Shown here piece after piece: positions 3 through 10,249 of a stretch of DNA of 17,396 bases. Position numbers and translations under genes: made by a program. The DNA comes from an uncultured Candidatus Saccharibacteria bacterium. GTDB taxonomy: Bacteria > Patescibacteriota > Minisyncoccia > UBA11713 > 2-01-FULL-45-33. The DNA lies in the NCBI GenBank assembly GCA_964640425.1, contig CAZXFC010000023.1, positions 1 through 17,396 of the forward strand, in the 5' to 3' direction. The notes beneath the pieces are model-generated. The model worked only from the letters and a program-made list of their open reading frames with translations, ran no database searches and had not been told where the DNA came from. Each line of letters begins with the position of its first letter. Positions within the stretch are counted from its first letter, which is position 1.

Positions 3-3000
3 TTATATCCTCCTTATCTCCTCGGCGATTATGGAAGGCGAGTCGTTGCGGAAAGAATAATTTCCCGTGACCATGACGCAATTGTTTTCGATTATATTTT
101 GGCCGTATTGCTGGAGGGTGCGCGGGAAAACGACGCATTCGATCTCGTCAGTCATGTCCTGAAGCTTTAAGAAGAGCATCGATTCTCCCTTTTTGGTCGT
201 TATACGGCGCGAGGTCAAAATAAGCGCGGCGACGGAAGCCTGCGGTCCGTAAGTGCCGCCTTTTTTTATTTTGAAGGAAGATATGGGAATTATGTAACCG
301 TTTTTCCCATTCTTTTTGTTGTCGTTATTGAATTTTTCGAGAGGATGCCCGGAAACATAAACTCCGAGGAGCTCGCGTTCCCAAGCAAGCTTTTCCTCAA
401 GCGTTGCTGGTAAGGTTTTTGATAGTTTAAGTTGCGGGAGAGTTGATTTATCAGACATTTCTGAAAAAAGCGATGACTGGCTGTCGTTCGAACTTTTGCG
501 GTGCGCTTTTGCATATTCCAAAATTTTATCCATATTTTTGACGACCTCGTTCCTTTCGGCAAATCCGTCCAAGGCCCCGGCTTTGGCCAGCGATTCGAGT
601 GATCTTTTGTTTAAGTCTTTTGAGTCGACCCTTTCCAGAAATTCGGCGAGCGACGTGAAAGATCCGTTTTTATCGCGTTCCACAATTATCGCTTCAACGA
701 TATTTTCCCCGACATTTTTTATCGACGTGAGCCCAAATCTGATTTTTGGCGGTTCACCCGCCGCTTGGCGGTCCGACTGCAAAGCGGGTATGGAAAATAT
801 TTTATTGCTTTGGTTGATATCCGGAGGCAAAACGGAAATCCCCATTTCTTTGCATTCCTTGATCAGCATTGCGATGCGTTCGGTATCTTTTTTATCGTTG
901 TTGAAAAGCGATGTCATGAATTCGAGAGGATAATAATATTTAAGCCAGGCTGTCTGAGCCCCGATTATCGCGTATGCGGCCGTATGCGCCTTATTGAAAC
1001 CGTATCGCGCGAAAGGCTCCAGAAGTTCTCCCAATTCTTGGGCTATTTTCGCATCAATGCCGTTTTTTATCATTCCGCCGACGAATTTTTCTTTTTGCTC
1101 TTCGAGAAGACTTCTTATTTTCTTACCGATGGCTTTGCGCAAAATGTCGGCTTCGGCGAGAGTAAACCCGGCCATTTCCTGCGCAATCTGCATCATTTGC
1201 TCCTGATAGATCGTCACTCCGTAAGTCGGCGACAATATTTTTTCCAATTTAGGATGGATATAAGTGACTTTTTCTTTGCCGTGCTTTCGCAAAATAAATG
1301 AGGGGATAAGCTCCATCGGGCCGGGGCGGAAGAGCGATATCATGGCGATGATGTCTTCAATGTCGTGCGGCTCCAGCTCCACTAAATATCTTGTCATTCC
1401 CGAACCTTCAAGCTGGAAAACTCCCACGGTTTTCCCTTCGCGGAGCATTTTGTAGGGTTCAGGATCGTTTACGTCGATATTTTGAATATCTATTTCTTTG
1501 CCGTACCTTTCTTTTATCAAATCGATGGTATTTTCCATTATCGATAGGTTTTTCAATCCGAGAAAATCCATTTTGAGAAGTCCCAAGTCGACGATGCCGT
1601 GCATATCGTATTGCGTTACGATCGCCTCATGCCTCGCATCGTCGTCTCCCCGCACGGCGGCGCGCTGCAACGGCACCATGTCTGTGAGAGGATTTTTTGT
1701 GATAACAACTCCCGAAGCGTGAACCGAAGCATGGCGGCATACGCCTTCCAGTTTCATTGCGGCGTCTAACATTTTTTTCGCGTCCGGGCTCGTCTCATAA
1801 ATGTTTTTAAGTTCAGGAACTTCTTTAAGGCATTTTTCCAGATATCCTTCTTTTTCTCCCTGATTCGGGTTGAAAGGTATCATTTTTGCGGTTTGGTCGG
1901 CCAATGCGAGTGAGATGCCCAAGGCCCGCCCTGCGTCGCGAATCGCCGCGCGGGCCGCCATTGTGCCGAAAGTGATAATTTGCGCAACATGATCCCTTCC
2001 GTATTTTTGGGCGACATATTCAATTACTTCGTCCCGCCTCGTATCCGCAAAATCCATATCGATGTCGGGCGGCTCCACGCGCGCAGGATTTAAAAATCTT
2101 TCGAAAATAAGATTGTATTTTATCGGGTCGACGTTCGTTATTTCCAAAACGTAAGAGACGATTGAGCCTGCCGCCGAGCCTCTTCCCGGGCCGACCGCGA
2201 TTTTTTGTTTTTTTGCCCAATTGACGAAATCCCACACCACCAAAAAATATTCAACGAACCCGGTCGTTTGCAAAACCGAAAGCTCGTAAGCAAGGCGCTT
2301 TTCTATTTCTGCGCCGGGTTTTTCACCATATCGTTTTATCAGTCCTTCTTCGCAAAGTTTTTCGAGGTACGAAAATGCCGTTTCGCCTTCGGGAAGAGGA
2401 AAGCTCGGTATTTGGATTTTACCCAGTTCCATTTTCAGATCGCACATCTCTGCGATTTTCAGCGTATTTGTAATTGCCTCGGGCGTATCTTTGAAAAGTT
2501 CAGCCATCTCTTCAGGCGCGCTGAGCGAATAATCGTCGTCTTTCATCGTGAGCCGGTCCTCGTCGTCGAGCCTTGTATTGGTTTGCACCGCCAAAAGCAC
2601 GTCGTGGGCCGACGCGTCATTTTTTTTTAAATAATGGATGTCTTGGGTCGCGACAAGCCCCACGCCGTGTTTTTTAGCGAAAGCTACGAGGTCGGCCATC
2701 AGCTTATTATAATTCGGCACTGAAGGATGGCTGCCTATTTCGATGAAAAAATTTTCTTTGCCCAAAATCTCCTGATATTGCGCCAAAAGTTCATCTGCCC
2801 TTGCTTCGTCGTTGTTCAAAAGAGCGCGCGGAATTTCGCCCGTCATGCATCCGGAGAGAGCGACGAGGCCGGCCGAATACTTTCTCAAATTTTCTTTATC
2901 TATTCTCGGCTTGTAATAGAAACCCTCCAGATGGGCGAGCGTCACGAGCTTCACGAGGTTTTTGTAACCCTCCAGGTTTTTTGAAAGCAATATCAAATGA

Positions 3001-3257
3001 TATCTTTTGTCGTCTATGCCGGGGCGTTTTTCATAAAGAGAACCGGCGGCGACGTAGGCTTCAACTCCGATGATCGGCTTTATTCCCGCTTTTTTACAGG
3101 CTTTGTAAAATTCTATCGCGCCGTAAAGATTGCCGTGATCGGTTATCGCCAAGGCGGGCATGCCCATTTTTTTTGCTTCCTTAACAAGGCCGTCAATTTT
3201 TGCAAGGCCGTCCAAGAGCGAATAATGCGAATGAGTATGTAGGTGAACGAATGACAT
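3..3257 (-). CDS. dnaE: DNA polymerase III alpha subunit (replicative polymerase), compact 1084-aa form
   Basis: Single uninterrupted ORF. The N-terminal PHP-domain signature MSFVHLHTHSHYSLLDG...ITDHGNLYG and a polymerase core are conserved throughout. ATG at 3255-3257 (reverse strand), stop at 3-5. No SD is visible upstream. Confidence 0.9.
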   Translation of the reverse strand: MSFVHLHTHSHYSLLDGLAKIDGLVKEAKKMGMPALAITDHGNLYGAIEFYKACKKAGIKPIIGVEAYVAAGSLYEKRPGIDDKRYHLILLSKNLEGYKNLVKLVTLAHLEGFYYKPRIDKENLRKYSAGLVALSGCMTGEIPRALLNNDEARADELLAQYQEILGKENFFIEIGSHPSVPNYNKLMADLVAFAKKHGVGLVATQDIHYLKKNDASAHDVLLAVQTNTRLDDEDRLTMKDDDYSLSAPEEMAELFKDTPEAITNTLKIAEMCDLKMELGKIQIPSFPLPEGETAFSYLEKLCEEGLIKRYGEKPGAEIEKRLAYELSVLQTTGFVEYFLVVWDFVNWAKKQKIAVGPGRGSAAGSIVSYVLEITNVDPIKYNLIFERFLNPARVEPPDIDMDFADTRRDEVIEYVAQKYGRDHVAQIITFGTMAARAAIRDAGRALGISLALADQTAKMIPFNPNQGEKEGYLEKCLKEVPELKNIYETSPDAKKMLDAAMKLEGVCRHASVHASGVVITKNPLTDMVPLQRAAVRGDDDARHEAIVTQYDMHGIVDLGLLKMDFLGLKNLSIMENTIDLIKERYGKEIDIQNIDVNDPEPYKMLREGKTVGVFQLEGSGMTRYLVELEPHDIEDIIAMISLFRPGPMELIPSFILRKHGKEKVTYIHPKLEKILSPTYGVTIYQEQMMQIAQEMAGFTLAEADILRKAIGKKIRSLLEEQKEKFVGGMIKNGIDAKIAQELGELLEPFARYGFNKAHTAAYAIIGAQTAWLKYYYPLEFMTSLFNNDKKDTERIAMLIKECKEMGISVLPPDINQSNKIFSIPALQSDRQAAGEPPKIRFGLTSIKNVGENIVEAIIVERDKNGSFTSLAEFLERVDSKDLNKRSLESLAKAGALDGFAERNEVVKNMDKILEYAKAHRKSSNDSQSSLFSEMSDKSTLPQLKLSKTLPATLEEKLAWERELLGVYVSGHPLEKFNNDNKKNGKNGYIIPISSFKIKKGGTYGPQASVAALILTSRRITTKKGESMLFLKLQDMTDEIECVVFPRTLQQYGQNIIENNCVMVTGNYSFRNDSPSIIAEEIRRI

Positions 3258-3375: not shown

Positions 3376-3405
3376 TAACTGTCATACTAAGGCAGTTTTT
3401 TCTTT
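3376..3405 (+). terminator. Terminator-like hairpin (aactg-11 nt loop-cagtt, then T-tract) just outside the 3' hairpin of IS-like element A
   Basis: Stem 3377-3381/3393-3397 followed by tttttctttt. No plus-strand gene ends here, so it may be an insertion-target structure rather than a functional terminator. Confidence 0.25.
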
Positions 3406-4076
3406 TATTCCAGCATTAATGTTAGAAGCTCGGTGTCTAACAATTTTGCCGTGCTGGATTTTACAAAACCGAGGTATTCCACTTTGTTTGCGAATTGGTC
3501 CAGGACGATATCCGGCAGCAAAAGAGGTCCCCATCGATTTGTCACAGTATAGTCCTGATAGCTGGACCACGTATATACGTGGTCTTTTTGTTTCCACTCT
3601 TTCATTTCTCGCGGATTACGGTGAATATATGCTGAAAGATGTAGAAGCTGCCGATCATCTTCGACATGTACAATTTTATACGGACCTTGGAACAAATGGC
3701 CGGATTTATTATATTTTGTATTGAAATATTTTGTGTATGCCGTAAGAACTCTTTGCATATATTGCGAAATACCGCCTTCAATGCCTTCTTTTATGGTCAG
3801 ATGAAAATGATTTGGCATTAAAGCAAAATTTACTAATTCCACAGAGCGATTTTTTATAATTTCGGCAATCATTGATTTATCGATGTTAAAAGCTCGGTGT
3901 CTAACAAATCTAGACACGTATCGGCCGATGTTATAGAGAATTTCCGGAGATTGGAAATATAAAATCAAGAATAAGAAGCGTGCCTTGTCTTTTTCGTCAA
4001 GAAAGATTTGCTGTTTATTATTGCCGCGATTGAAAAGATGGTAATACTCTCCGGGCGCGATAGGTGTTGTTCTCAT
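3405..4076 (-). CDS. tnpA: Y1 (HuH) tyrosine transposase, IS200-like / REP-associated (RAYT-like, COG1943-type), 223 aa
   Basis: N-terminal G-E-YYHLFNRG motif, HuH motif LMPNHFHL, and C-terminal catalytic-Tyr helix LSAYIHRNP. Paralogous (roughly 35-40% identity by eye) to the CDS at 5201-5836. Confidence 0.8.
   Translation of the reverse strand: MRTTPIAPGEYYHLFNRGNNKQQIFLDEKDKARFLFLILYFQSPEILYNIGRYVSRFVRHRAFNIDKSMIAEIIKNRSVELVNFALMPNHFHLTIKEGIEGGISQYMQRVLTAYTKYFNTKYNKSGHLFQGPYKIVHVEDDRQLLHLSAYIHRNPREMKEWKQKDHVYTWSSYQDYTVTNRWGPLLLPDIVLDQFANKVEYLGFVKSSTAKLLDTELLTLMLE
3419..3447. repeat. Element A terminal hairpin repeat, 3'/RE side (atgttagaagctcggtgtctaacaatttt). Stem tgttaga/tctaaca, loop agctcggtg.
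   Basis: Exact 29/29 match to 4094-4122. It lies inside the last 14 codons of tnpA-A. Confidence 0.85.
3883..3911. repeat. Element A internal copy of the terminal hairpin (atgttaaaagctcggtgtctaacaaatct), same orientation, 26/29 identity
   Basis: It lies inside the tnpA-A reading frame and encodes FVRHRAFN. An overlapping alternative stem gtgtcta/tagacac is also present. Hairpin centre is 211 nt from the 5'-side copy and 464 nt from the 3'-side copy. Confidence 0.8.
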
Positions 4077-4093
4077 ATGTGCATCAAGCTAGC

Positions 4094-4122
4094 ATGTTAG
4101 AAGCTCGGTGTCTAACAATTTT
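4094..4122. repeat. Element A terminal hairpin repeat, 5'/LE side, 18 nt upstream of the tnpA-A start
   Basis: Exact 29/29 match to 3419-3447. Confidence 0.85.
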
Positions 4123-4171: not shown

Positions 4172-5116
4172 ATGCTTTTTAAGCTCCTTGCAAATATTTA
4201 TACGGCCGGACGCACATTCGGTGAAGCGAAGCCCAGGATTGATGCGCTTACAAGGCGAGGTTTTAGCGTGACGAGCGATATTTTGGGTGAATTTAACAAA
4301 GATCGAGAGAGAATTGAACAAGCGGTTGACGAGTATTTACTGCACATGCAGGTACTGGGCTTACTGCAAAAAGCCAAAGGAACCGGAAATATTGTAAGCC
4401 TGGCCGTTAAGCCGTCGCGTATCGGGCTTGAACATTCATATGGGGTTTTCCAAAAAAATCTTCATATTATTGCCGAAGCCGCTAAAAATGCGGGAATATT
4501 TCTTTGGACTGACGCTGAAAAAAAGAAAGACCGAGAAATAGTTACCGTCTCGAATATAAGAGAGCGTGCCATGGGCTTCGATAATATAGGGCAGGCAATT
4601 CAATGTGTCCATTCCGATGCCGAAAAATTTATTGAAGAACTTCTTAAATGGAATATTGGTATTCGTTTTGTGAAAGGCGCGTATACTGACGGAGACCTGA
4701 AAAAAGACACGGACATTGTCCAAAATTTTAAAAATTGTTTTTGGTCAGCGCTTTTTCATTTCAGAAATTCAAAGGAAAAAGCTACTATAGCCGCGGCTAC
4801 CCACGATAGCAGGCTCATCGATTATGCGCTCAGGTTCAGGGAAATAGATCCGGATCTCGCGCAATTTATCCAGATTCAGATGCTATATGGTATCCGCGTG
4901 AAGCTGTGGTTTGAGCTTATAAGGAAAGGGGTTGATCTTTTGATATACGTCCCTTGGGGACCCGACCGGATCGGCTTCTTAAAGCGCCGACTCAAAGAAG
5001 GCATCCAGCCGGGCGCCAAATGGCTTTTTATCAGGAATATTTTCGAAGCGTGGTTTTATAGATTTTCTGATGACTATCCTTACGGTTTTGGAGAAGATAC
5101 TTTTAATAAAAAATAA
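4172..5116 (+). CDS. Proline dehydrogenase (monofunctional PRODH, PutB-like), 314 aa, N-terminus about 20 aa shorter than typical homologues
   Basis: Motifs conserved in the PRODH barrel: IGIRFVKGAY (compare LRIVKGAY), AAATHD (compare VATHD), FIQIQMLYGIR (compare FQMLYGMR), YVPWGP, and FLKRRLKEG (compare MRRLAERP). SD-like aagg lies 6 nt upstream of ATG 4172. An in-frame upstream stop at 4154 fixes the start. Confidence 0.8.
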   Translation: MLFKLLANIYTAGRTFGEAKPRIDALTRRGFSVTSDILGEFNKDRERIEQAVDEYLLHMQVLGLLQKAKGTGNIVSLAVKPSRIGLEHSYGVFQKNLHIIAEAAKNAGIFLWTDAEKKKDREIVTVSNIRERAMGFDNIGQAIQCVHSDAEKFIEELLKWNIGIRFVKGAYTDGDLKKDTDIVQNFKNCFWSALFHFRNSKEKATIAAATHDSRLIDYALRFREIDPDLAQFIQIQMLYGIRVKLWFELIRKGVDLLIYVPWGPDRIGFLKRRLKEGIQPGAKWLFIRNIFEAWFYRFSDDYPYGFGEDTFNKK

Positions 5117-5123
5117 CATTTCA

Positions 5124-5156
5124 TCCGGCGTCAATGGCGCCGGATTTGTTTTTTTT
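5124..5156 (+). terminator. Rho-independent terminator of the PRODH gene
   Basis: Stem tccggcg (5124-5130) / cgccgga (5138-5144), 7-nt loop, followed by tttgtttttttt. Confidence 0.75.
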
Positions 5157-5162
5157 ACAGTC

Positions 5163-5188
5163 ACTTGGCTTCCCGAGACCTAAGTGCT
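5163..5188. repeat. Element B 5'/LE hairpin (acttggc-ttcccgaga-cctaagt, stem with a 1-nt bulge)
   Basis: Shares ttcccgagacctaagt(N)tgct with the 3' copy. Confidence 0.8.
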
Positions 5189-5200
5189 ATATTGCGCGGC

Positions 5201-5836
5201 ATGAGAAAATCAAAATTTGTAAATGGGGAATTTTATCATATTTATAATCGCGGAACCGACAAAAGAGTAATTTTTTCCGATCAATACGACTTTGAGCGCT
5301 TTCTTCGGGCTATGAACGAGTTTAACTCAATCAAGCCGGTTGGCAGCCTTTACGAAAATTCTTTTCGCGACCGACTTAGGTCTCGGGAACCTAAGTTGGT
5401 AAATATCGTTGCTTATTGTCTAAATCCAAATCATTTTCATATTATTTTAGAGCAAATGAAAAACGGCGGGATAAGTAATTTTATTCAAAAACTTGGAGGT
5501 GGGTATGCTAATTATTTTAACGCTAAATACAAAAGGTCGGGAACTCTTTTTCAAGGAAGATTCAAATCAAAGCATGTGGATTCAAATGAATATTTATTGC
5601 ATTTAAGCGTATACGTAAATTTAAATAATAAAGTTCATAAAATAAAAAATCAGAACTTCAGATCAAGTTGGGATGAATATATGAGAGATAACAAAACAAG
5701 CTTGTGCGGGACAAAAATAATTTTGGATCAGTTTAAGAATTCAAAAGAATACAGGATTTTTTCCGAAAGCTCTTTGGTGGATATATTACAAAGGAAGGAA
5801 ACGCACAAGGAGATAGAAAATCTGTTGCTAGAATAG
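5201..5836 (+). CDS. tnpA: Y1 (HuH) tyrosine transposase, IS200-like / RAYT-like, 211 aa from ATG 5201
   Basis: MRKSKFVNGEFYHIYNRG aligns with MRTTPIAPGEYYHLFNRG of the paralogue. HuH motif LNPNHFHI and catalytic-Tyr helix LSVYVNLN are present. The ORF-track start at TTG 5165 was rejected in favour of ATG 5201 on the strength of this alignment. Confidence 0.8.
   Translation: MRKSKFVNGEFYHIYNRGTDKRVIFSDQYDFERFLRAMNEFNSIKPVGSLYENSFRDRLRSREPKLVNIVAYCLNPNHFHIILEQMKNGGISNFIQKLGGGYANYFNAKYKRSGTLFQGRFKSKHVDSNEYLLHLSVYVNLNNKVHKIKNQNFRSSWDEYMRDNKTSLCGTKIILDQFKNSKEYRIFSESSLVDILQRKETHKEIENLLLE
5374..5396. repeat. Element B internal hairpin (acttaggtctcgggaacctaagt), the exact reverse complement of the 23-nt 3'-end hairpin
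   Basis: It lies inside the tnpA-B reading frame and encodes LRSREPKL. Hairpin centre is about 211 nt from the LE hairpin and about 465 nt from the RE hairpin. Confidence 0.8.
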
Positions 5837-5838
5837 TT

Positions 5839-5867
5839 ACTTAGGTTCCCGAGACCTAAGTAGTGCT
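5839..5867. repeat. Element B 3'/RE hairpin (acttaggt-tcccgag-acctaagt, then agtgct), 3 nt after the tnpA-B stop
   Basis: Perfect 7-bp stem. The loop contains CCGAG, as in the element A loops when read in element orientation. Confidence 0.8.
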
Positions 5868-5952: not shown

Positions 5953-6207
5953 GTGGTTGCTTATATTTTATTGGCAGTTATTGCTGTTGTTTTGGATTAT
6001 TTTTTTGGCAAAAATGCTTTCACGAGTTGGTTTGGCTGGTACTTATTTCTAAGCGTTGTCATTTGCATGCCGGCGCACATGTATTCTTACATTCTACAAC
6101 TTACGTTAGGAAGCGAGGAATTCGCAAAAAAATACCCAAATCCCGAAGAATATCTAGCTTCGCATAAAACTTTTTTGTTTGCAATATTTTACAGCTTATT
6201 TCTCTAA
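5953..6207 (+). CDS. Small hydrophobic (2-TM) hypothetical protein, 84 aa, GTG start
   Basis: The ORF runs two hydrophobic stretches and is followed by a terminator-like hairpin. No recognisable motifs and a weak start context. Confidence 0.3.
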   Translation: MVAYILLAVIAVVLDYFFGKNAFTSWFGWYLFLSVVICMPAHMYSYILQLTLGSEEFAKKYPNPEEYLASHKTFLFAIFYSLFL

Positions 6208-6274: not shown

Positions 6275-6910
6275 ATGTATTATTTATGTGTGGTTAAATA
6301 CATCATTGGAATCGACGAGGTTGGGAGGGGACCGTTGGCCGGGCCGATGATGGTCGGCGCCGTTGCGATTGCCGGAGAGCCGCCGGACGCCGGATTTTTG
6401 AGAGGAATAAAAGATTCTAAGAAACTGACAAAACTCCGGCGCGAGAATTGGAGCAAGAAAATTTGGGCGGAGAAAAACCGGCCCAAGGCCGGCCAGCCTG
6501 GGGCTGGCGAAATTAAAATTGCAATTGTCTCTATTGGTCCGTCCGTTATCGACAAATACGGGATATCTGCATCATTAAAACTCGCGGTAGCCAAGTGTCT
6601 TAAGATTTTGGTTAAAACCGATGACGAGTGCGAAATATTTCTCGATGGCTCGCTTTATGCGCCTGAGCAATATAAAAATCAACAAACAATTATAAAAGGA
6701 GACGAAAAGTTTCCGGTAATTTCCGCGGCTTCGGTGGTGGCCAAAGTTTACCGCGACAAAATAATGCAAAAACTTTCGATAAAATATCCCGAATATGGTT
6801 TTGACAATCATGTCGGCTATGGCACCGCCGCCCACATCGCGGCGATAAAAAAACACGGCCTCTCGGCCGTCCACCGCAAAAGTTTTTGCAAAAAAATTCT
6901 TATTGATTAA
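6275..6910 (+). CDS. rnhB: Ribonuclease HII
   Basis: Signature IIGIDEVGRGPLAGP...DSKKLT, a catalytic DxxD... region, and a full-length 211-aa product. GC-rich relative to its neighbours. Confidence 0.9.
   Translation: MYYLCVVKYIIGIDEVGRGPLAGPMMVGAVAIAGEPPDAGFLRGIKDSKKLTKLRRENWSKKIWAEKNRPKAGQPGAGEIKIAIVSIGPSVIDKYGISASLKLAVAKCLKILVKTDDECEIFLDGSLYAPEQYKNQQTIIKGDEKFPVISAASVVAKVYRDKIMQKLSIKYPEYGFDNHVGYGTAAHIAAIKKHGLSAVHRKSFCKKILID
6848..6875 (+). repeat. 28-bp perfect direct repeat, copy 1 (aaaaaacacggcctctcggccgtccacc), inside the 3' end of rnhB; contains the palindrome acggcc-tctc-ggccgt
   Basis: Identical to 7636-7663. Confidence 0.9.
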
Positions 6911-6911
6911 T

Positions 6912-7637
6912 ATGAAAGGTATGAACGAGCAGTCTTCACGGTCAGAAACTCCCCAAGAACTAAACGAACTATTGCAGGAACCCGGCAAGGATTATAGTCA
7001 TTTAATCAGGAAGATAGAAAAATTTGACGGGAAGTACGCTGAAATTCTTAGGACAAACTATTCTGAAATTTGGGATGATTATATTTTTAAAAGGACAAAT
7101 GCGGATATTAATATTGACTCCCTTTTTCAAAAGGCTTTACCGGATGAAACACTTGTTGATTTGGGTGGGGCGGCGGGGAGGCTAAGTGAGCTGGCTGGAA
7201 AATATAAGGCTAAGATGTATTTAGATGCTGATTTATATCCTTACGGAGCTGATGATCCGGAACCCGCTGACCCCACTAAAGGAAATATAAATATTAACGA
7301 TTATTATGATGTGATAACAAATACAAAAATGTTTGAGGGTAGCATAAAAAAATTAATAGTTAGAAGCGATATGCTTGATTTCGCGAGCCGAATAAAAGAC
7401 GGATCCGTAAACCTTACGCTAAACGGCATTGATTCATTTATTATTAAGGACCCAAAATATCACGAGGCATTGGCAAATGAAATTGCCCGGGCGGCCAAGC
7501 CGGGTGGTATTATATTCGGTAATCATTCAACTAGCTTAATGATGCTCGTTAAGATGATAGAAGGTGGGCCACTACGAGACAAATTTGAAATAGCAAAGAA
7601 TCATCAGGGTATGATTGTCATCCAAAAGAAAAACTAA
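6912..7637 (+). CDS. Putative class I SAM-dependent methyltransferase (substrate unknown), low GC
   Basis: Motif I-like LVDLGGAAGRL followed by the acidic YLDAD, plus a post-I AKPGGIIFG motif. There is no DPPY/SPPY DNA-methyltransferase motif. The start could be ATG 6912 or ATG 6921. Confidence 0.45.
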   Translation: MKGMNEQSSRSETPQELNELLQEPGKDYSHLIRKIEKFDGKYAEILRTNYSEIWDDYIFKRTNADINIDSLFQKALPDETLVDLGGAAGRLSELAGKYKAKMYLDADLYPYGADDPEPADPTKGNININDYYDVITNTKMFEGSIKKLIVRSDMLDFASRIKDGSVNLTLNGIDSFIIKDPKYHEALANEIARAAKPGGIIFGNHSTSLMMLVKMIEGGPLRDKFEIAKNHQGMIVIQKKN

Positions 7638-7663
7638 AAAACACGGCCTCTCGGCCGTCCACC
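7636..7663 (+). repeat. 28-bp perfect direct repeat, copy 2, immediately after the methyltransferase stop
   Basis: Identical to 6848-6875. Confidence 0.9.
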
Positions 7664-7689
7664 ACCGCTCATTTTGTAAGAATATATAA
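7636..7689 (+). pseudogene. Ghost duplicate of the rnhB 3' end (encodes KKHGLSAVHHRSFCKNI* against rnhB KKHGLSAVHRKSFCKKILID*)
   Basis: The first 28 nt are identical to rnhB. The remainder has diverged at synonymous/conservative positions (cgc/cgc, agt/tca Ser, ttt/ttt, tgc/tgt, aaa/aag) and carries its own stop. Confidence 0.7.
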
Positions 7690-7800
7690 GACTATTGTGT
7701 CTAAAATTTACGATCGTGCAAAGTAGGCACTATAAGCGTAAGAATAATCGGCAGACGCTTATTTTATCGAAATATAATTTATGCTATTTTAAAGTAAGAT

Positions 7801-8244
7801 TTGGCGGATAATTTGGATTATAGGATCAAAAGAAATCTTGTATCGGCTTGTCTTGAGATGATTGACACAATGTTTACAAAGGAAAAACTTTCGGGAACCG
7901 GCGCGTCAGAGGAGCTTATTTTTGCGGCGCTTGCCGAGATAACGAATGCGCATTGCGAGTTTGAACAGGATGCGGAATTTATGGTACATCTCGTAGTTGA
8001 TAATTATTTAAGTCCTTTAAAAAGCCTTATGCCGCAAGCGGTAAATTTGGCACCAATATTTGTTGTGTTTTGCAAAAACAATAAATTTCATTATGAGCTT
8101 AAAATGGTAAACTCGTATGAAATGAATGAACTGATCTGGGCCGGAAAAACCGATATGGATCCGCGAATAAGCGTCATCGAAAATTGGGGATTATTGGTGA
8201 GAATGGATTGGACCCCAAGGCTATTACCGAAACCGCGAAATTAA
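7801..8244 (+). CDS. Hypothetical protein, 147 aa (start uncertain: TTG 7801 or ATG 7858)
   Basis: ORF with a downstream intrinsic terminator. AT-rich like the adjacent methyltransferase. No recognisable motif. Confidence 0.4.
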   Translation: MADNLDYRIKRNLVSACLEMIDTMFTKEKLSGTGASEELIFAALAEITNAHCEFEQDAEFMVHLVVDNYLSPLKSLMPQAVNLAPIFVVFCKNNKFHYELKMVNSYEMNELIWAGKTDMDPRISVIENWGLLVRMDWTPRLLPKPRN

Positions 8245-8260
8245 GTCTGCTTGCAGGCAG

Positions 8261-8289
8261 AAGCCTGCACTTGCAGGCTTTTTCTTTTT
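8261..8289 (+). terminator. Rho-independent terminator (aagcctgc-actt-gcaggctt, then tttttcttttt)
   Basis: 8-bp GC-rich stem plus T-tract. An alternative overlapping stem gcaggc-agaa-gcctgc lies just upstream. Confidence 0.7.
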
Positions 8290-8307
8290 GTGCTAAAATC
8301 TAGCATT

Positions 8308-8565
8308 ATGACAGTAAGGATGCGTCACACGCCGTCTCACACGGCAAACAGGAGGAGTCACCATGCGTTATCAGGCGTGGTCTCGGTAAAATGCGCCAAA
8401 TGCGGAATTGATGTCCTGCCTCACCGCGTTTGCGCAAATTGCGGCTTTTATAAAGGCAGAGAAGTCGTGGATGTGCTTAAAAAATTGACAAAAAAAGAAA
8501 AGAAAGCGAAGCAAAAAGAGATAGATGCACATACCCACGAAGTGGGAGAACCGGAAAATAAATAA
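8308..8565 (+). CDS. rpmF: 50S ribosomal protein L32 with a zinc ribbon and a Lys/Glu-rich C-terminal extension
   Basis: RRSHHAL...CAKCG...HRVCANCGFYKGREV matches L32 (RRTHFKL...CPSCG...HRVCKACGSYNGKDI). Start taken at ATG 8308. The ORF-track start 8251 overlaps the upstream terminator and was rejected. Confidence 0.75.
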   Translation: MTVRMRHTPSHTANRRSHHALSGVVSVKCAKCGIDVLPHRVCANCGFYKGREVVDVLKKLTKKEKKAKQKEIDAHTHEVGEPENK

Positions 8566-8633: not shown

Positions 8634-9551
8634 ATGGCAAACAGACACTTATCCAGATCAATCGCGATGCAGTCGCTTTTTGAATTGGATTTTTACGGTC
8701 GCCTCGGAGGGAAAATGGCCGCAAAGAAAAAAGAACTGGGAGAGATACTTCTGCGCACTATAGAGGAATTCGGACCCGGGCTCGACGACGGAAGTTTTGC
8801 CAAAAAAATCGCCATGGGAGTTTTGGAAAAACAGGAAGATATCGACGATATCATACAAAAAGCGGCGCCCGAATGGCCCATCGCGCAAATCGCTCCCGTA
8901 GACAGGAATGTCCTGCGCGTCGGGCTTTATGAATTGCTTTTTGGCGAAAGAAAAGAAGTCCCGCCAAAAGTGGCCATAAATGAATCAATCGAGCTTGCCA
9001 AAAGTTTTGGAGGGGATTCCTCAGGTAAGTTCGTTAACGGAGTTCTGGGAACGGTTTACAGGGAACTCGGCGAGCCGGGTAAAGACGACAAGGGCAAAAA
9101 AGGCGAGCTGTTGGATTTAAACAAGCTTCCCAAAGAAGAGCTAGGAGGCGCGGTGGTGATACGCCGCGAACGCGACAATGTTTTATTTGCCATGGTGCAC
9201 GACGTTTTTGGTCGCTGGACCTTTTCAAAAGGGCACCTGGAAAAAGACGAGACCATTGAAAACGGAACTTTACGCAAAATAAAAGAGGAATTCGGGATAA
9301 CAAATCTGAAACTGCTCAAAAAAATTGGCGAGAACGAATACATCGCTTCTGACCCTGATACCGGACCTACAAGGAGGCACGTGAGCTACTTTCTGGCCGA
9401 GACGAAAGACAAAGTGCTCAAAGTTGACAGGTCGGGTGGGTTGGACGACGCCCGCTGGTTTGATTCCGAAGAAGTTCACGGACTTAAAATGTACGACGAC
9501 ATAAAGCACCTTTTGGACGAAGCTGAGGAGGCTCTAAAGATCGTAAAATGA
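8634..9551 (+). CDS. nusB: NusB (transcription antitermination factor) fused in one ORF to a C-terminal Nudix hydrolase domain, 305 aa
   Basis: N-terminal NusB motifs (RHLSRSIAMQSLFELDF...RNVLRVGLYELLF...INESIELAKSFGG..KFVNGVLG). After a Lys/Gly linker comes GHLEKDETIENGTLRKIKEEFGI, which fits the Nudix box Gx5Ex7R[E>K]UxEExGU with one substitution. Confidence 0.8.
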   Translation: MANRHLSRSIAMQSLFELDFYGRLGGKMAAKKKELGEILLRTIEEFGPGLDDGSFAKKIAMGVLEKQEDIDDIIQKAAPEWPIAQIAPVDRNVLRVGLYELLFGERKEVPPKVAINESIELAKSFGGDSSGKFVNGVLGTVYRELGEPGKDDKGKKGELLDLNKLPKEELGGAVVIRRERDNVLFAMVHDVFGRWTFSKGHLEKDETIENGTLRKIKEEFGITNLKLLKKIGENEYIASDPDTGPTRRHVSYFLAETKDKVLKVDRSGGLDDARWFDSEEVHGLKMYDDIKHLLDEAEEALKIVK

Positions 9552-10249
9552 TGAATTTTGAAGAGTTTGAAAAAAATATAGGTGTTGAGTTTAAAGACAA
9601 GGATCTTTTAAGGATAGCACTCACGCACAGATCTTTTTTGAATGAGAACCCTGCGGTTGCGGGGGAAAAAAAAGAGCACAATGAACGCTTGGAATTTTTA
9701 GGAGATGCCGTTTTGGAGCTCGTCATAACCGAACATTTATATAAATTCTTTCCGGACAAGCCGGAAGGGGATCTTACCAGTTTCCGCGCTTCACTGGTGA
9801 ATGCAAACATGCTTGGCGAGGTGGCGCGCGACCTTAATTTTAATAAATTCTTATTGTTGTCGCGGGGAGAAGCCAAAGATGTGGGCCGCGCCCGTCTTTA
9901 TATATTAGCGAACGCTTTTGAATCGGTAACGGGCGCGATTTACCTCGACCGCGGATACGACATGGTCAAAGATTTTATTTTGCGGGTTTTGGAGCCGAAA
10001 ATCGGCGAGATCGTCGAAAAAAAATTATATCGTGATGCCAAAAGTTTTTTTCAGGAGGAGGCACAGGAAAGGGAAAGTGTCACGCCTACATATAAAGTCA
10101 TCAAAGAATGGGGCCCCGACCACGACAAGCATTTTATTGTCGGGGTTTATCTTGGCAAAGAACTTATCGCCGAAGGCGAAGGACCTTCAAAACAACAGGC
10201 TCAGCAAATGGCCGCCGAGGGGGCGTTAAAAACAAAAGGCTGGGAATGA
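9548..10249 (+). CDS. rnc: Ribonuclease III
   Basis: RNase III signature ERLEFLGDAVLELVI and a C-terminal dsRBD. 4-nt ATGA overlap with the upstream gene. Confidence 0.9.
   Translation: MMNFEEFEKNIGVEFKDKDLLRIALTHRSFLNENPAVAGEKKEHNERLEFLGDAVLELVITEHLYKFFPDKPEGDLTSFRASLVNANMLGEVARDLNFNKFLLLSRGEAKDVGRARLYILANAFESVTGAIYLDRGYDMVKDFILRVLEPKIGEIVEKKLYRDAKSFFQEEAQERESVTPTYKVIKEWGPDHDKHFIVGVYLGKELIAEGEGPSKQQAQQMAAEGALKTKGWE

Follow-up and report, generated by a model that had tools for sequence, protein, structure and literature searches.

Introduction

Several routes are described by which foreign DNA comes to lie at the end of a conserved gene while that gene stays usable. Phage 21 and e14 insert into the 3′ end of the Escherichia coli icd gene and supply a substitute end for it. 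For natural transformation, homology-facilitated illegitimate recombination was reportedly described in 2002 by de Vries and Wackernagel and by Prudhomme et al. A further class is insertion with long target duplication, in which direct repeats of tens to hundreds of base pairs lie around the insert (Nobusato et al. 2000, Gene 259:99; Furuta, Abe & Kobayashi 2010, PMC2853133). In this class the repeats often span the stop codon and the target gene stays intact; the inserts hold one or a few genes, orphan methyltransferases among them, and no mobility gene; relatives carry one repeat copy and no insert; and the examples come mostly from naturally competent species, the mechanism being unknown there (PMC2853133). 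Here we analyze the 3′ end of rnhB, the gene for ribonuclease HII (RNase HII), in a stretch of 17,396 nt (hereafter the window) from an uncultured bacterium of the candidate phyla radiation (CPR) deposited as Candidatus Saccharibacteria (assembly GCA_964640425.1, contig CAZXFC010000023.1). A 788-bp unit with a single gene of predicted methyltransferase fold (the cargo) is bracketed there by a perfect 28-bp direct repeat, and the second repeat copy runs on into a displaced, untranslated "ghost" of the end of rnhB. A first-pass annotation of the window had read this arrangement as the attL/attR footprint of a site-specific recombinase. We favor, with moderate confidence, a different origin, namely a scar of general recombination, in part homology-guided and in part illegitimate, between related lineages, with no self-mobile cassette involved.

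Results

A perfect repeat and a displaced gene end behind rnhB

Searching the window for the 28-mer AAAAAACACGGCCTCTCGGCCGTCCACC returned two exact copies spaced 788 bp apart, one in the 3′ end of rnhB and one past the cargo (Table 1), just as first annotated; with up to three mismatches allowed the matches were still those two, against none expected from 200 shuffles. The second copy had been placed directly after the methyltransferase stop codon, and this is right as to position, except that its first two nucleotides overlap the stop codon itself. Neither the 106 related loci that we searched nor IMG/VR contained the 28-mer or the 16-nt palindrome within it; the 28-mer is thus not a dispersed repeat. 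The palindrome (ACGGCC-TCTC-GGCCGT), which in rnhB consists of the codons for H-G-L-S-A-V, folds with −10.5 kcal/mol (z = −4.6), and on the minus strand the 28-mer forms a hairpin followed by a T-run that a terminator scan called at both copies. Two substitutions, TCG and GTC, are present in both copies and make the 6-bp stem perfect. These bases occur in 0 of the 106 related loci, and the palindrome is missing from the orthologous site of all relatives.

Copy 1, inside rnhB, reads KKHGLSAVHRKSFCKKILID-stop, and the live gene ends in …HRKSFCKKILID-stop; copy 2 reads on as KKHGLSAVHHRSFCKNI-stop (7636–7689). A hidden Markov model (HMM) of the RNase HII C-terminus recognized the latter with E = 1e-6, as the sole significant extra match in the six-frame translated window and about 105 related loci, which bears out the earlier description of a ghost of the rnhB end; in it, His takes the place of the otherwise invariant Arg of the HR motif. 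Over 50 nt the two copies match at 80%, with 28 bp exact. Past the 28-mer they are only about 59–71% identical and represent different tail types, the next 26 nt holding at least seven substitutions and two 3-nt indels. Corresponding codons of the live and ghost tails include Ser AGT and TCA, Cys TGC and TGT, and Lys AAA and AAG, a pattern that, together with the presence of both tail types in live genes of relatives, supports the proposal that both evolved as coding sequence. Because AGT and TCA stand for the same serine, both still coding, decay in place offers no explanation.

The inserted unit of 788 bp comprises the substitute tail and one gene, with no spare bases inside. Its right junction sits in an A-run (…AAAAACTAA/AAAACACGG and …GCGATAAAAAAACACGG; TAAAAAA and ATAAAAAAA).

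Empty sites and mosaic rnhB genes in relatives

The RNase HII of the window is 71–80% identical to that of Candidatus Giovannonibacteria-like bacteria (related loci and homologous proteins are denoted below by L and P numbers, respectively), and from the names of these homologues the organism is taken as a Giovannonibacteria-like member of the Parcubacteria/CPR. A search of the genome contigs with the protein returned distant relatives alone (34–37% identity). Synteny is kept for dnaE, proline dehydrogenase, rnhB, rpmF, nusB-NUDIX and rnc. In four lineages (L013, L015/L016, L095/L096 and L106) the site is empty: the rnhB stop codon is followed by 31–36 nt, a small open reading frame (ORF) of about 141–155 aa, and rpmF. 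In L003, about 95 nt separate the rnhB stop codon from rpmF and the small ORF is absent. Since relatives show an empty site and since ORF147 of the window belongs to their family of small ORFs, the 788-bp unit is an insertion relative to the ancestral layout. The first-pass annotation had itself named an empty site as the test of an insertion that brings a replacement tail, and L013, L016, L095 and L106 provide it.

Among relatives, live rnhB genes have tails of both types. The ghost agrees with L014, whose tail is of the KNII type, at 44 of 50 nt (18 of 22 nt in the tail part), including an unusual TCA serine codon common to both, and the live tail starts with 14 nt equal to those of the L094 rnhB tail (14/14). 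L013, L014 and L106 agree completely over a 28-nt block and then go on to three different tails, so that it lies in the nature of rnhB to change abruptly from full (28/28) identity to divergent tails. Which of the two tails is native was decided neither by similarity to L014 (18/22 nt for the ghost, 16/22 nt for the live tail) nor by the 60 nt upstream of the 28-mer. From these comparisons, the two tails appear to have evolved separately and to have been joined by inter-lineage recombination.

The remainder of rnhB points in the same direction. When the nearest relative was determined in 60-nt windows (among L001, L003, L013, L014, L016 and L093–L095), it switched five or six times along the 636 nt of the gene, between L095/L016, L013, L003, L001 and L013/L014, with a change every 60–150 nt. 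Identity to L013, for example, is 93% at alignment codon columns 35–54 and 50% at columns 130–149. Given this patchwork of lineages, recombination between them is evidently frequent at rnhB.

In L014 an insertion sequence (IS) landed about 30 nt past the rnhB stop codon (L014:866–2937). It has GGGCTCAT-type terminal repeats and two transposase-like ORFs, of 427 aa (minus strand) and 224 aa (plus strand), and it is a further sign that the spot tolerates insertions. An apparent third ghost behind this IS ("VHRGSFC", position 2190) was rejected, since it belongs to a GGGCTCAT motif that recurs at the ends of the IS.

A second insertion at the same gene end

A tail swap was also found in L001 (GCA_030648495.1, contig JAUSHV010000004.1, 6553–7357), whose RNase HII is 80% identical to that of the window. 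Its live rnhB ends in RRSFCRNINLS-stop; the RNINLS-stop type occurs otherwise in P0021 and P0029, RNase HII proteins that are 68% and 51% identical to that of the window. Behind rnhB follow a terminator-like hairpin and then, on the opposite strand, an unrelated 166-aa gene (6676–7176) with a GC content of 51%, compared to 43.6% for the locus; homologues of this second cargo do not adjoin rnhB. The stretch GFCRKFI-stop (GGC TTT TGC AGA AAA TTT ATT TAG) lies at 7331–7357, 29 nt before the small ORF. Since this region and the part of L013/L016 that runs from the rnhB tail and stop codon through the intergenic DNA to the start of the small ORF align at about 85%, we regard it as a ghost of the end that rnhB originally had here. 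Within L001, the live and ghost copies have TTTTGCAGAAA alone in common (about 11 nt), and the junction lies nine codons downstream of that in the window. To judge from these alignments, two different cargos entered the same gene end at two points, each accompanied by a foreign tail.

More ghosts were sought over about 105 loci with the C-terminus HMM, two regular expressions and self-blastn, and the window ghost alone was significant. Such scans cannot pick up a ghost as short as that of L001, which was identified by aligning it with its neighbors. A conserved promoter-like motif, TTGC(A/C)G-N16-TG(C/T)TA(C/G)(T/C)CT, extends across the last rnhB codons and the intergenic DNA (L013:1450–1510, L016:4575–4631, L095:4598–4654, L106:1755–1806 and, in the ghost, L001:7334–7386). 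It was read by eye from the sequence and not called by a scan tool, and the window ghost has no convincing equivalent. The L001 ghost starts just upstream of TTGCAG, and one may speculate that this motif is the reason why the ghost was retained.

The cargo gene

The cargo was described initially as a low-GC methyltransferase gene. Its composition is indeed foreign, with a GC content of 38.6% and a GC content at third codon positions (GC3) of 36.4%, compared to 44.2% GC for the window and 45–49% GC and 48–56% GC3 for core genes. Its Pfam match is weak (Methyltransf_23, E = 0.007, below cut-off). The AlphaFold model is confident (pLDDT, the predicted local distance difference test, 91.2), and the top 50 PDB matches in Foldseek are nearly all S-adenosylmethionine (SAM)-dependent methyltransferases or spermidine synthases, with a few uncharacterized proteins among them (E about 1e-5 to 2e-4, template modeling score (TM) 0.32–0.46). 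A glycine-rich SAM-binding loop motif (LVDLGGAAG) is also present, and on the strength of the model a class I SAM-dependent methyltransferase fold is supported.

The cargo belongs to a family of 413 members. Its closest homologues are 42–43% identical and lie in unrelated contexts, and IMG/VR contained no match. The idea that a frameshift fuses the cargo to the ghost was considered and rejected. In L005, a 33%-identical homologue (P0002; L005:6001–6711) stands inside a deoxynucleotide-metabolism cluster, in the order dCMP deaminase, dUTPase, thyX, cargo homologue and dNK/thymidylate kinase, a context that hints at a nucleotide-related substrate for the family.

Gene order around the insertion

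The features of the locus are collected in Table 1.

Table 1. Annotated features of the window around the rnhB insertion (positions refer to the 17,396-nt stretch).
Feature	Position	Strand	Remarks
dnaE	3–3257	−	
IS200-like Y1 transposase gene	3405–4076	−	Pfam Y1_Tnp
Proline dehydrogenase	4172–5116	+	
Second Y1 gene	5165–5836	+	Pfam Y1_Tnp
Small ORF	5953–6207	+	
rnhB (RNase HII), live, with substitute tail	6275–6910	+	Pfam RNase_HII, E=1.3e-33
28-mer copy 1	6848–6875	+	Codons KKHGLSAVH in rnhB; 16-nt palindrome at 6855–6870
Live (substitute) rnhB tail	6876–6910	+	RKSFCKKILID-stop; conserved HR.SFC motif kept; ends 2–3 residues later than usual
Cargo	6912–7637	+	241-aa protein, predicted class I SAM-methyltransferase fold; ATG 1 nt past rnhB stop
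28-mer copy 2	7636–7663	+	2-nt overlap with cargo stop codon (TAA, 7635–7637)
Ghost (displaced) rnhB tail	7664–7689	+	HRSFCKNI-stop; closest to L014 tail
ORF147	7801–8244	+	Divergent member of the small "ORF155" family; alignment with relatives
Terminator-like hairpin and T-run after ORF147	8243–8282	+	−23.9 kcal/mol, z = −3.65
rpmF (ribosomal protein L32)	8308–8565	+	Read from sequence; orthologous neighbors are Ribosomal_L32p in L001, L003 and L095
nusB-NUDIX fusion	8634–9551	+	
rnc	9548–10249	+	
Downstream of rnc			NUDIX genes, smc, SPFH protein

Behind the insertion, rpmF is the conserved right-hand anchor of a variable interval. The rpmF promoter-like region at 8269–8315 (TTGCAG-N17-TAAAAT), which the terminator-like hairpin overlaps, is 89–91% identical to L003 and L095. 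The small ORF that occupies the rnhB–rpmF slot in most relatives evolves fast and has no Pfam match; its copies of 141–155 aa (among them L001:7387–7851, L013:1511–1975, L016:4632–5099 and L095:4655–5080) are 16–21% identical to the window copy, ORF147. A hairpin at 7732–7762 was considered as a terminator after the ghost and rejected, as it folds no better than shuffles (z = −0.74). Further downstream, the fusion of NusB and a NUDIX hydrolase domain in a single ORF is kept in L001–L003, L094, L095 and L100.

Each Y1 gene is accompanied by three hairpin copies, located upstream, about 200 nt inside the listed ORF, and at the 3′ end. For the first gene these are TGTTAGA-N9-TCTAACA at 3419–3447, 3883–3911 and 4094–4122 (element span 3405–4122); for the second, ACTTAGGT-N7-ACCTAAGT at 5163–5185, 5374–5396 (inverted) and 5839–5861 (element span 5144–5861). 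The second Y1 gene is syntenic in L002–L004 and missing in L001, L094, L095 and L106.

Discussion

The reading that we favor, a scar of general recombination, would start from the ancestral order of the clade, with rnhB followed by about 31–36 nt, a small ORF of the ORF155 family, and rpmF. The donor would have been another Giovannonibacteria-like lineage with a gene of methyltransferase fold directly downstream of rnhB. At the left junction, homologous recombination would have joined the two genes in frame within the highly conserved KKHGLSA(V/I)H codons, so that the live rnhB now runs into the donor tail and, 1 nt later, into the neighboring gene of the donor. The right junction would be illegitimate, joining the cargo stop codon (…AAAAACTAA) to the A-run that opens the conserved block (ATAAAAAAACACGG…), and leaving the resident block with its own tail downstream as the untranslated ghost. 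The insertion would be tolerated because rnhB retains a complete, functional-looking C-terminus, and expression of the cargo probably depends on rnhB, through read-through and translational coupling. With the cargo start codon 1 nt past the rnhB stop codon, the cargo stop codon at the junction, and no recombinase, the unit resembles a slice of chromosome rather than an element.

As for the mechanics, the A-run at the right junction looks like the kind of microhomology used in illegitimate joins, and we infer RecA-type homologous pairing combined with a microhomology join. DNA taken up by the cell could have entered by homology-facilitated illegitimate recombination; alternatively, a Campbell-type single crossover could have taken place inside the 28 identical base pairs. 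The incoming flank could have been either the tail and cargo from the left or the ghost and ORF147 from the right.

Several points weigh against this scar. Both 28-mers carry the lineage-specific TCG and GTC bases, which the simplest one-sided model does not predict; if donor and recipient were independent lineages, then the donor must have been a close relative, or gene conversion must have followed, or the 28-mer itself must have been the place of a crossover or duplication. These identical bases fit a Campbell-type or att-type (attachment-site) event better than the simplest one-sided model, and a crossover within the 28-mer would be either Campbell-type, at about the minimal RecA substrate size, or site-specific. 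No donor genome, in which an rnhB ending in KKILID-stop is followed directly by the methyltransferase gene with no ghost behind it, was present among the searched homologues. The comparison comprises two examples (the window and L001), the window being one complete 17.4-kb contig of this genome. It is because of the shared TCG and GTC bases that we hold the scar only as the somewhat likelier explanation, and that we keep site-specific integration as an unlikely alternative and duplication in place as a distinctly improbable one.

Site-specific integration, the origin first proposed, would make the 28-mer the core of attL and attR, with the recombinase encoded elsewhere or lost, and the incoming DNA a small circle whose attP mimicked the 3′ end of rnhB. 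The parts of that proposal that describe the footprint stand: its classical shape, an exact core in a gene end with one tail substituted and the other displaced, is present, the cores are identical down to their lineage-specific bases and contain a perfect palindrome, and relatives have the empty site. What found no support is the machinery. Pfam scans of 17 of the larger ORFs, which make up most of the contig, detected neither a tyrosine nor a serine recombinase, in keeping with the initial remark that the unit holds no integrase, and the two Y1_Tnp genes, 1–3 kb upstream, are the sole recombinase-type genes. There is no room for arm sites, as the cargo gene starts right behind the substitute tail and its stop codon borders on the core; decay of a larger element would have required a deletion ending exactly at the stop codon and the core edge. 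Nor is the core reused, since the L001 insertion in the same gene end lacks it and has a different junction. The palindrome is mere rnhB coding sequence that the relatives do not share, neither the 28-mer nor the cargo has a match in IMG/VR, and the patchwork of lineages along rnhB points to general recombination. We therefore regard site-specific integration as unlikely.

Duplication of the target in place would have copied about 54 nt of the rnhB end at insertion, after which the two copies diverged where they stand, the first 28 nt being held by selection or gene conversion. This form fits the class known for restriction-modification and orphan methyltransferase genes (PMC2853133), and it accounts for the lineage-specific bases common to both 28-mers. 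The distribution of the differences speaks against it: for about nine events spread uniformly over 54 nt, the chance that all fall in the last 26 nt is about 0.001. A decaying copy is also not expected to move from one serine codon to another (AGT and TCA), and counterparts of the live tail occur in other lineages (14/14 nt for L094), which together make this origin quite improbable.

Very improbable, in our estimate, is a reading in which the 28-mer is the recombination site of an integrase-less system of single-gene cassettes in CPR bacteria, targeted to the 3′ end of rnhB and moved in trans, for instance by the neighboring Y1/HUH transposases acting on a folded single strand or by an unseen recombinase. 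If it were true, the substitute tail would be a part of the cassette, and the target gene would survive for that reason. A narrower version, a minimal cassette directed by its hairpin, has the 16-nt palindrome used in trans by a Y1 (HUH, IS200-like) transposase encoded 0.4–3 kb upstream, and we give it hardly any credence. Two Y1_Tnp genes with hairpin repeats of their own do lie nearby, a stable hairpin specific to this genome marks both ends of the unit, and CCGAGA (minus strand) is common to the loop and stem of this hairpin and to the hairpins of the 5165–5836 element, an agreement expected by chance in about 5% of cases. However, the stems of the resident hairpins (ACTTAGGT and TGTTAGA) are otherwise unlike that of the 28-mer, and transposition of the IS200/IS605 type proceeds without target duplication and leaves an in-frame rnhB tail after the right hairpin unexplained. 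Moreover, the second Y1 gene keeps its syntenic place stably in L002–L004, where rnhB bears no insertion, and L001 has a ghost and no Y1 gene in the locus.

An assembly chimera of two co-occurring strains joined at a shared k-mer seems similarly remote. The contig belongs to a metagenome-assembled genome and was seen only once, no second contig encoding either the cargo protein or this RNase HII; related strains co-occur in such samples, and rnhB is a mosaic. Yet a chimera would still need real reads linking the cargo stop codon to an rnhB-like 28-mer, and hence some genome with a ghost. Metagenome assemblers usually finish with k-mers longer than the 28 bp of this repeat, and L001, from a different assembly, has the same kind of structure. 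Three further candidates were rejected outright: an integron cassette (the sole palindrome is 16 nt of rnhB codons, whereas an attC site is an imperfect palindrome of about 57–141 nt with R/L boxes, and there is no attC and no IntI), a Y1-borne IS200/IS605 element or non-autonomous derivative (the hairpins differ and the right end is an in-frame rnhB tail), and a diversity-generating retroelement (no reverse transcriptase was found, and the differences are indels and substitutions of every base type, not confined to adenine).

CPR bacteria have tiny genomes with few recognizable mobile elements, and gene gain in them is poorly documented. This locus offers an example at base resolution, complete with empty sites and a second independent case, of a single accessory gene that came to lie behind a conserved housekeeping gene and brought a spare gene end with it. 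It suggests that the rnhB–rpmF interval is a small recombination hot spot in Giovannonibacteria. Ghost gene ends could serve to detect such events, and annotators should bear in mind that not every repeat of this kind is an att site.

Comparison with known systems

With phage 21 and e14 the locus shares the core identity in a gene end, a tail borne by the incoming DNA, differences that are mostly of the synonymous type, and a displaced pseudo-copy. Those elements are kilobases long, however, with an integrase gene next to the att site, whereas the insert in the window measures 788 bp and holds one unrelated gene, the scanned ORFs include no integrase, and in a relative the second insertion has a junction of its own. 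Homology-facilitated illegitimate recombination would resemble the locus in placing one junction in a conserved homologous anchor and the other at a microhomology of 3–10 nt (here perhaps the T/A-run), and in adding foreign DNA beside a conserved gene without any mobile-element function; its classical outcome differs, in that recipient DNA is deleted and no perfect 28-bp duplicate is left. The closest known form is insertion with long target duplication, with which the unit has in common its direct repeats, the lack of a mobility gene and the empty site in relatives. The differences lie in the length of the exact repeat (28 bp, against a 30-bp threshold in that class), in the copies beyond it, which are different tail types and not near-identical duplicates, and in the cargo, which has a methyltransferase fold only, with no sign of DNA methylation or of a link to restriction-modification. 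Set beside these systems, the structure as we read it is a fairly ordinary scar of a known kind that reveals no new mechanism, and its added interest, a modest one, lies in the CPR setting and in the fact that a relative has an insertion at this gene end too.

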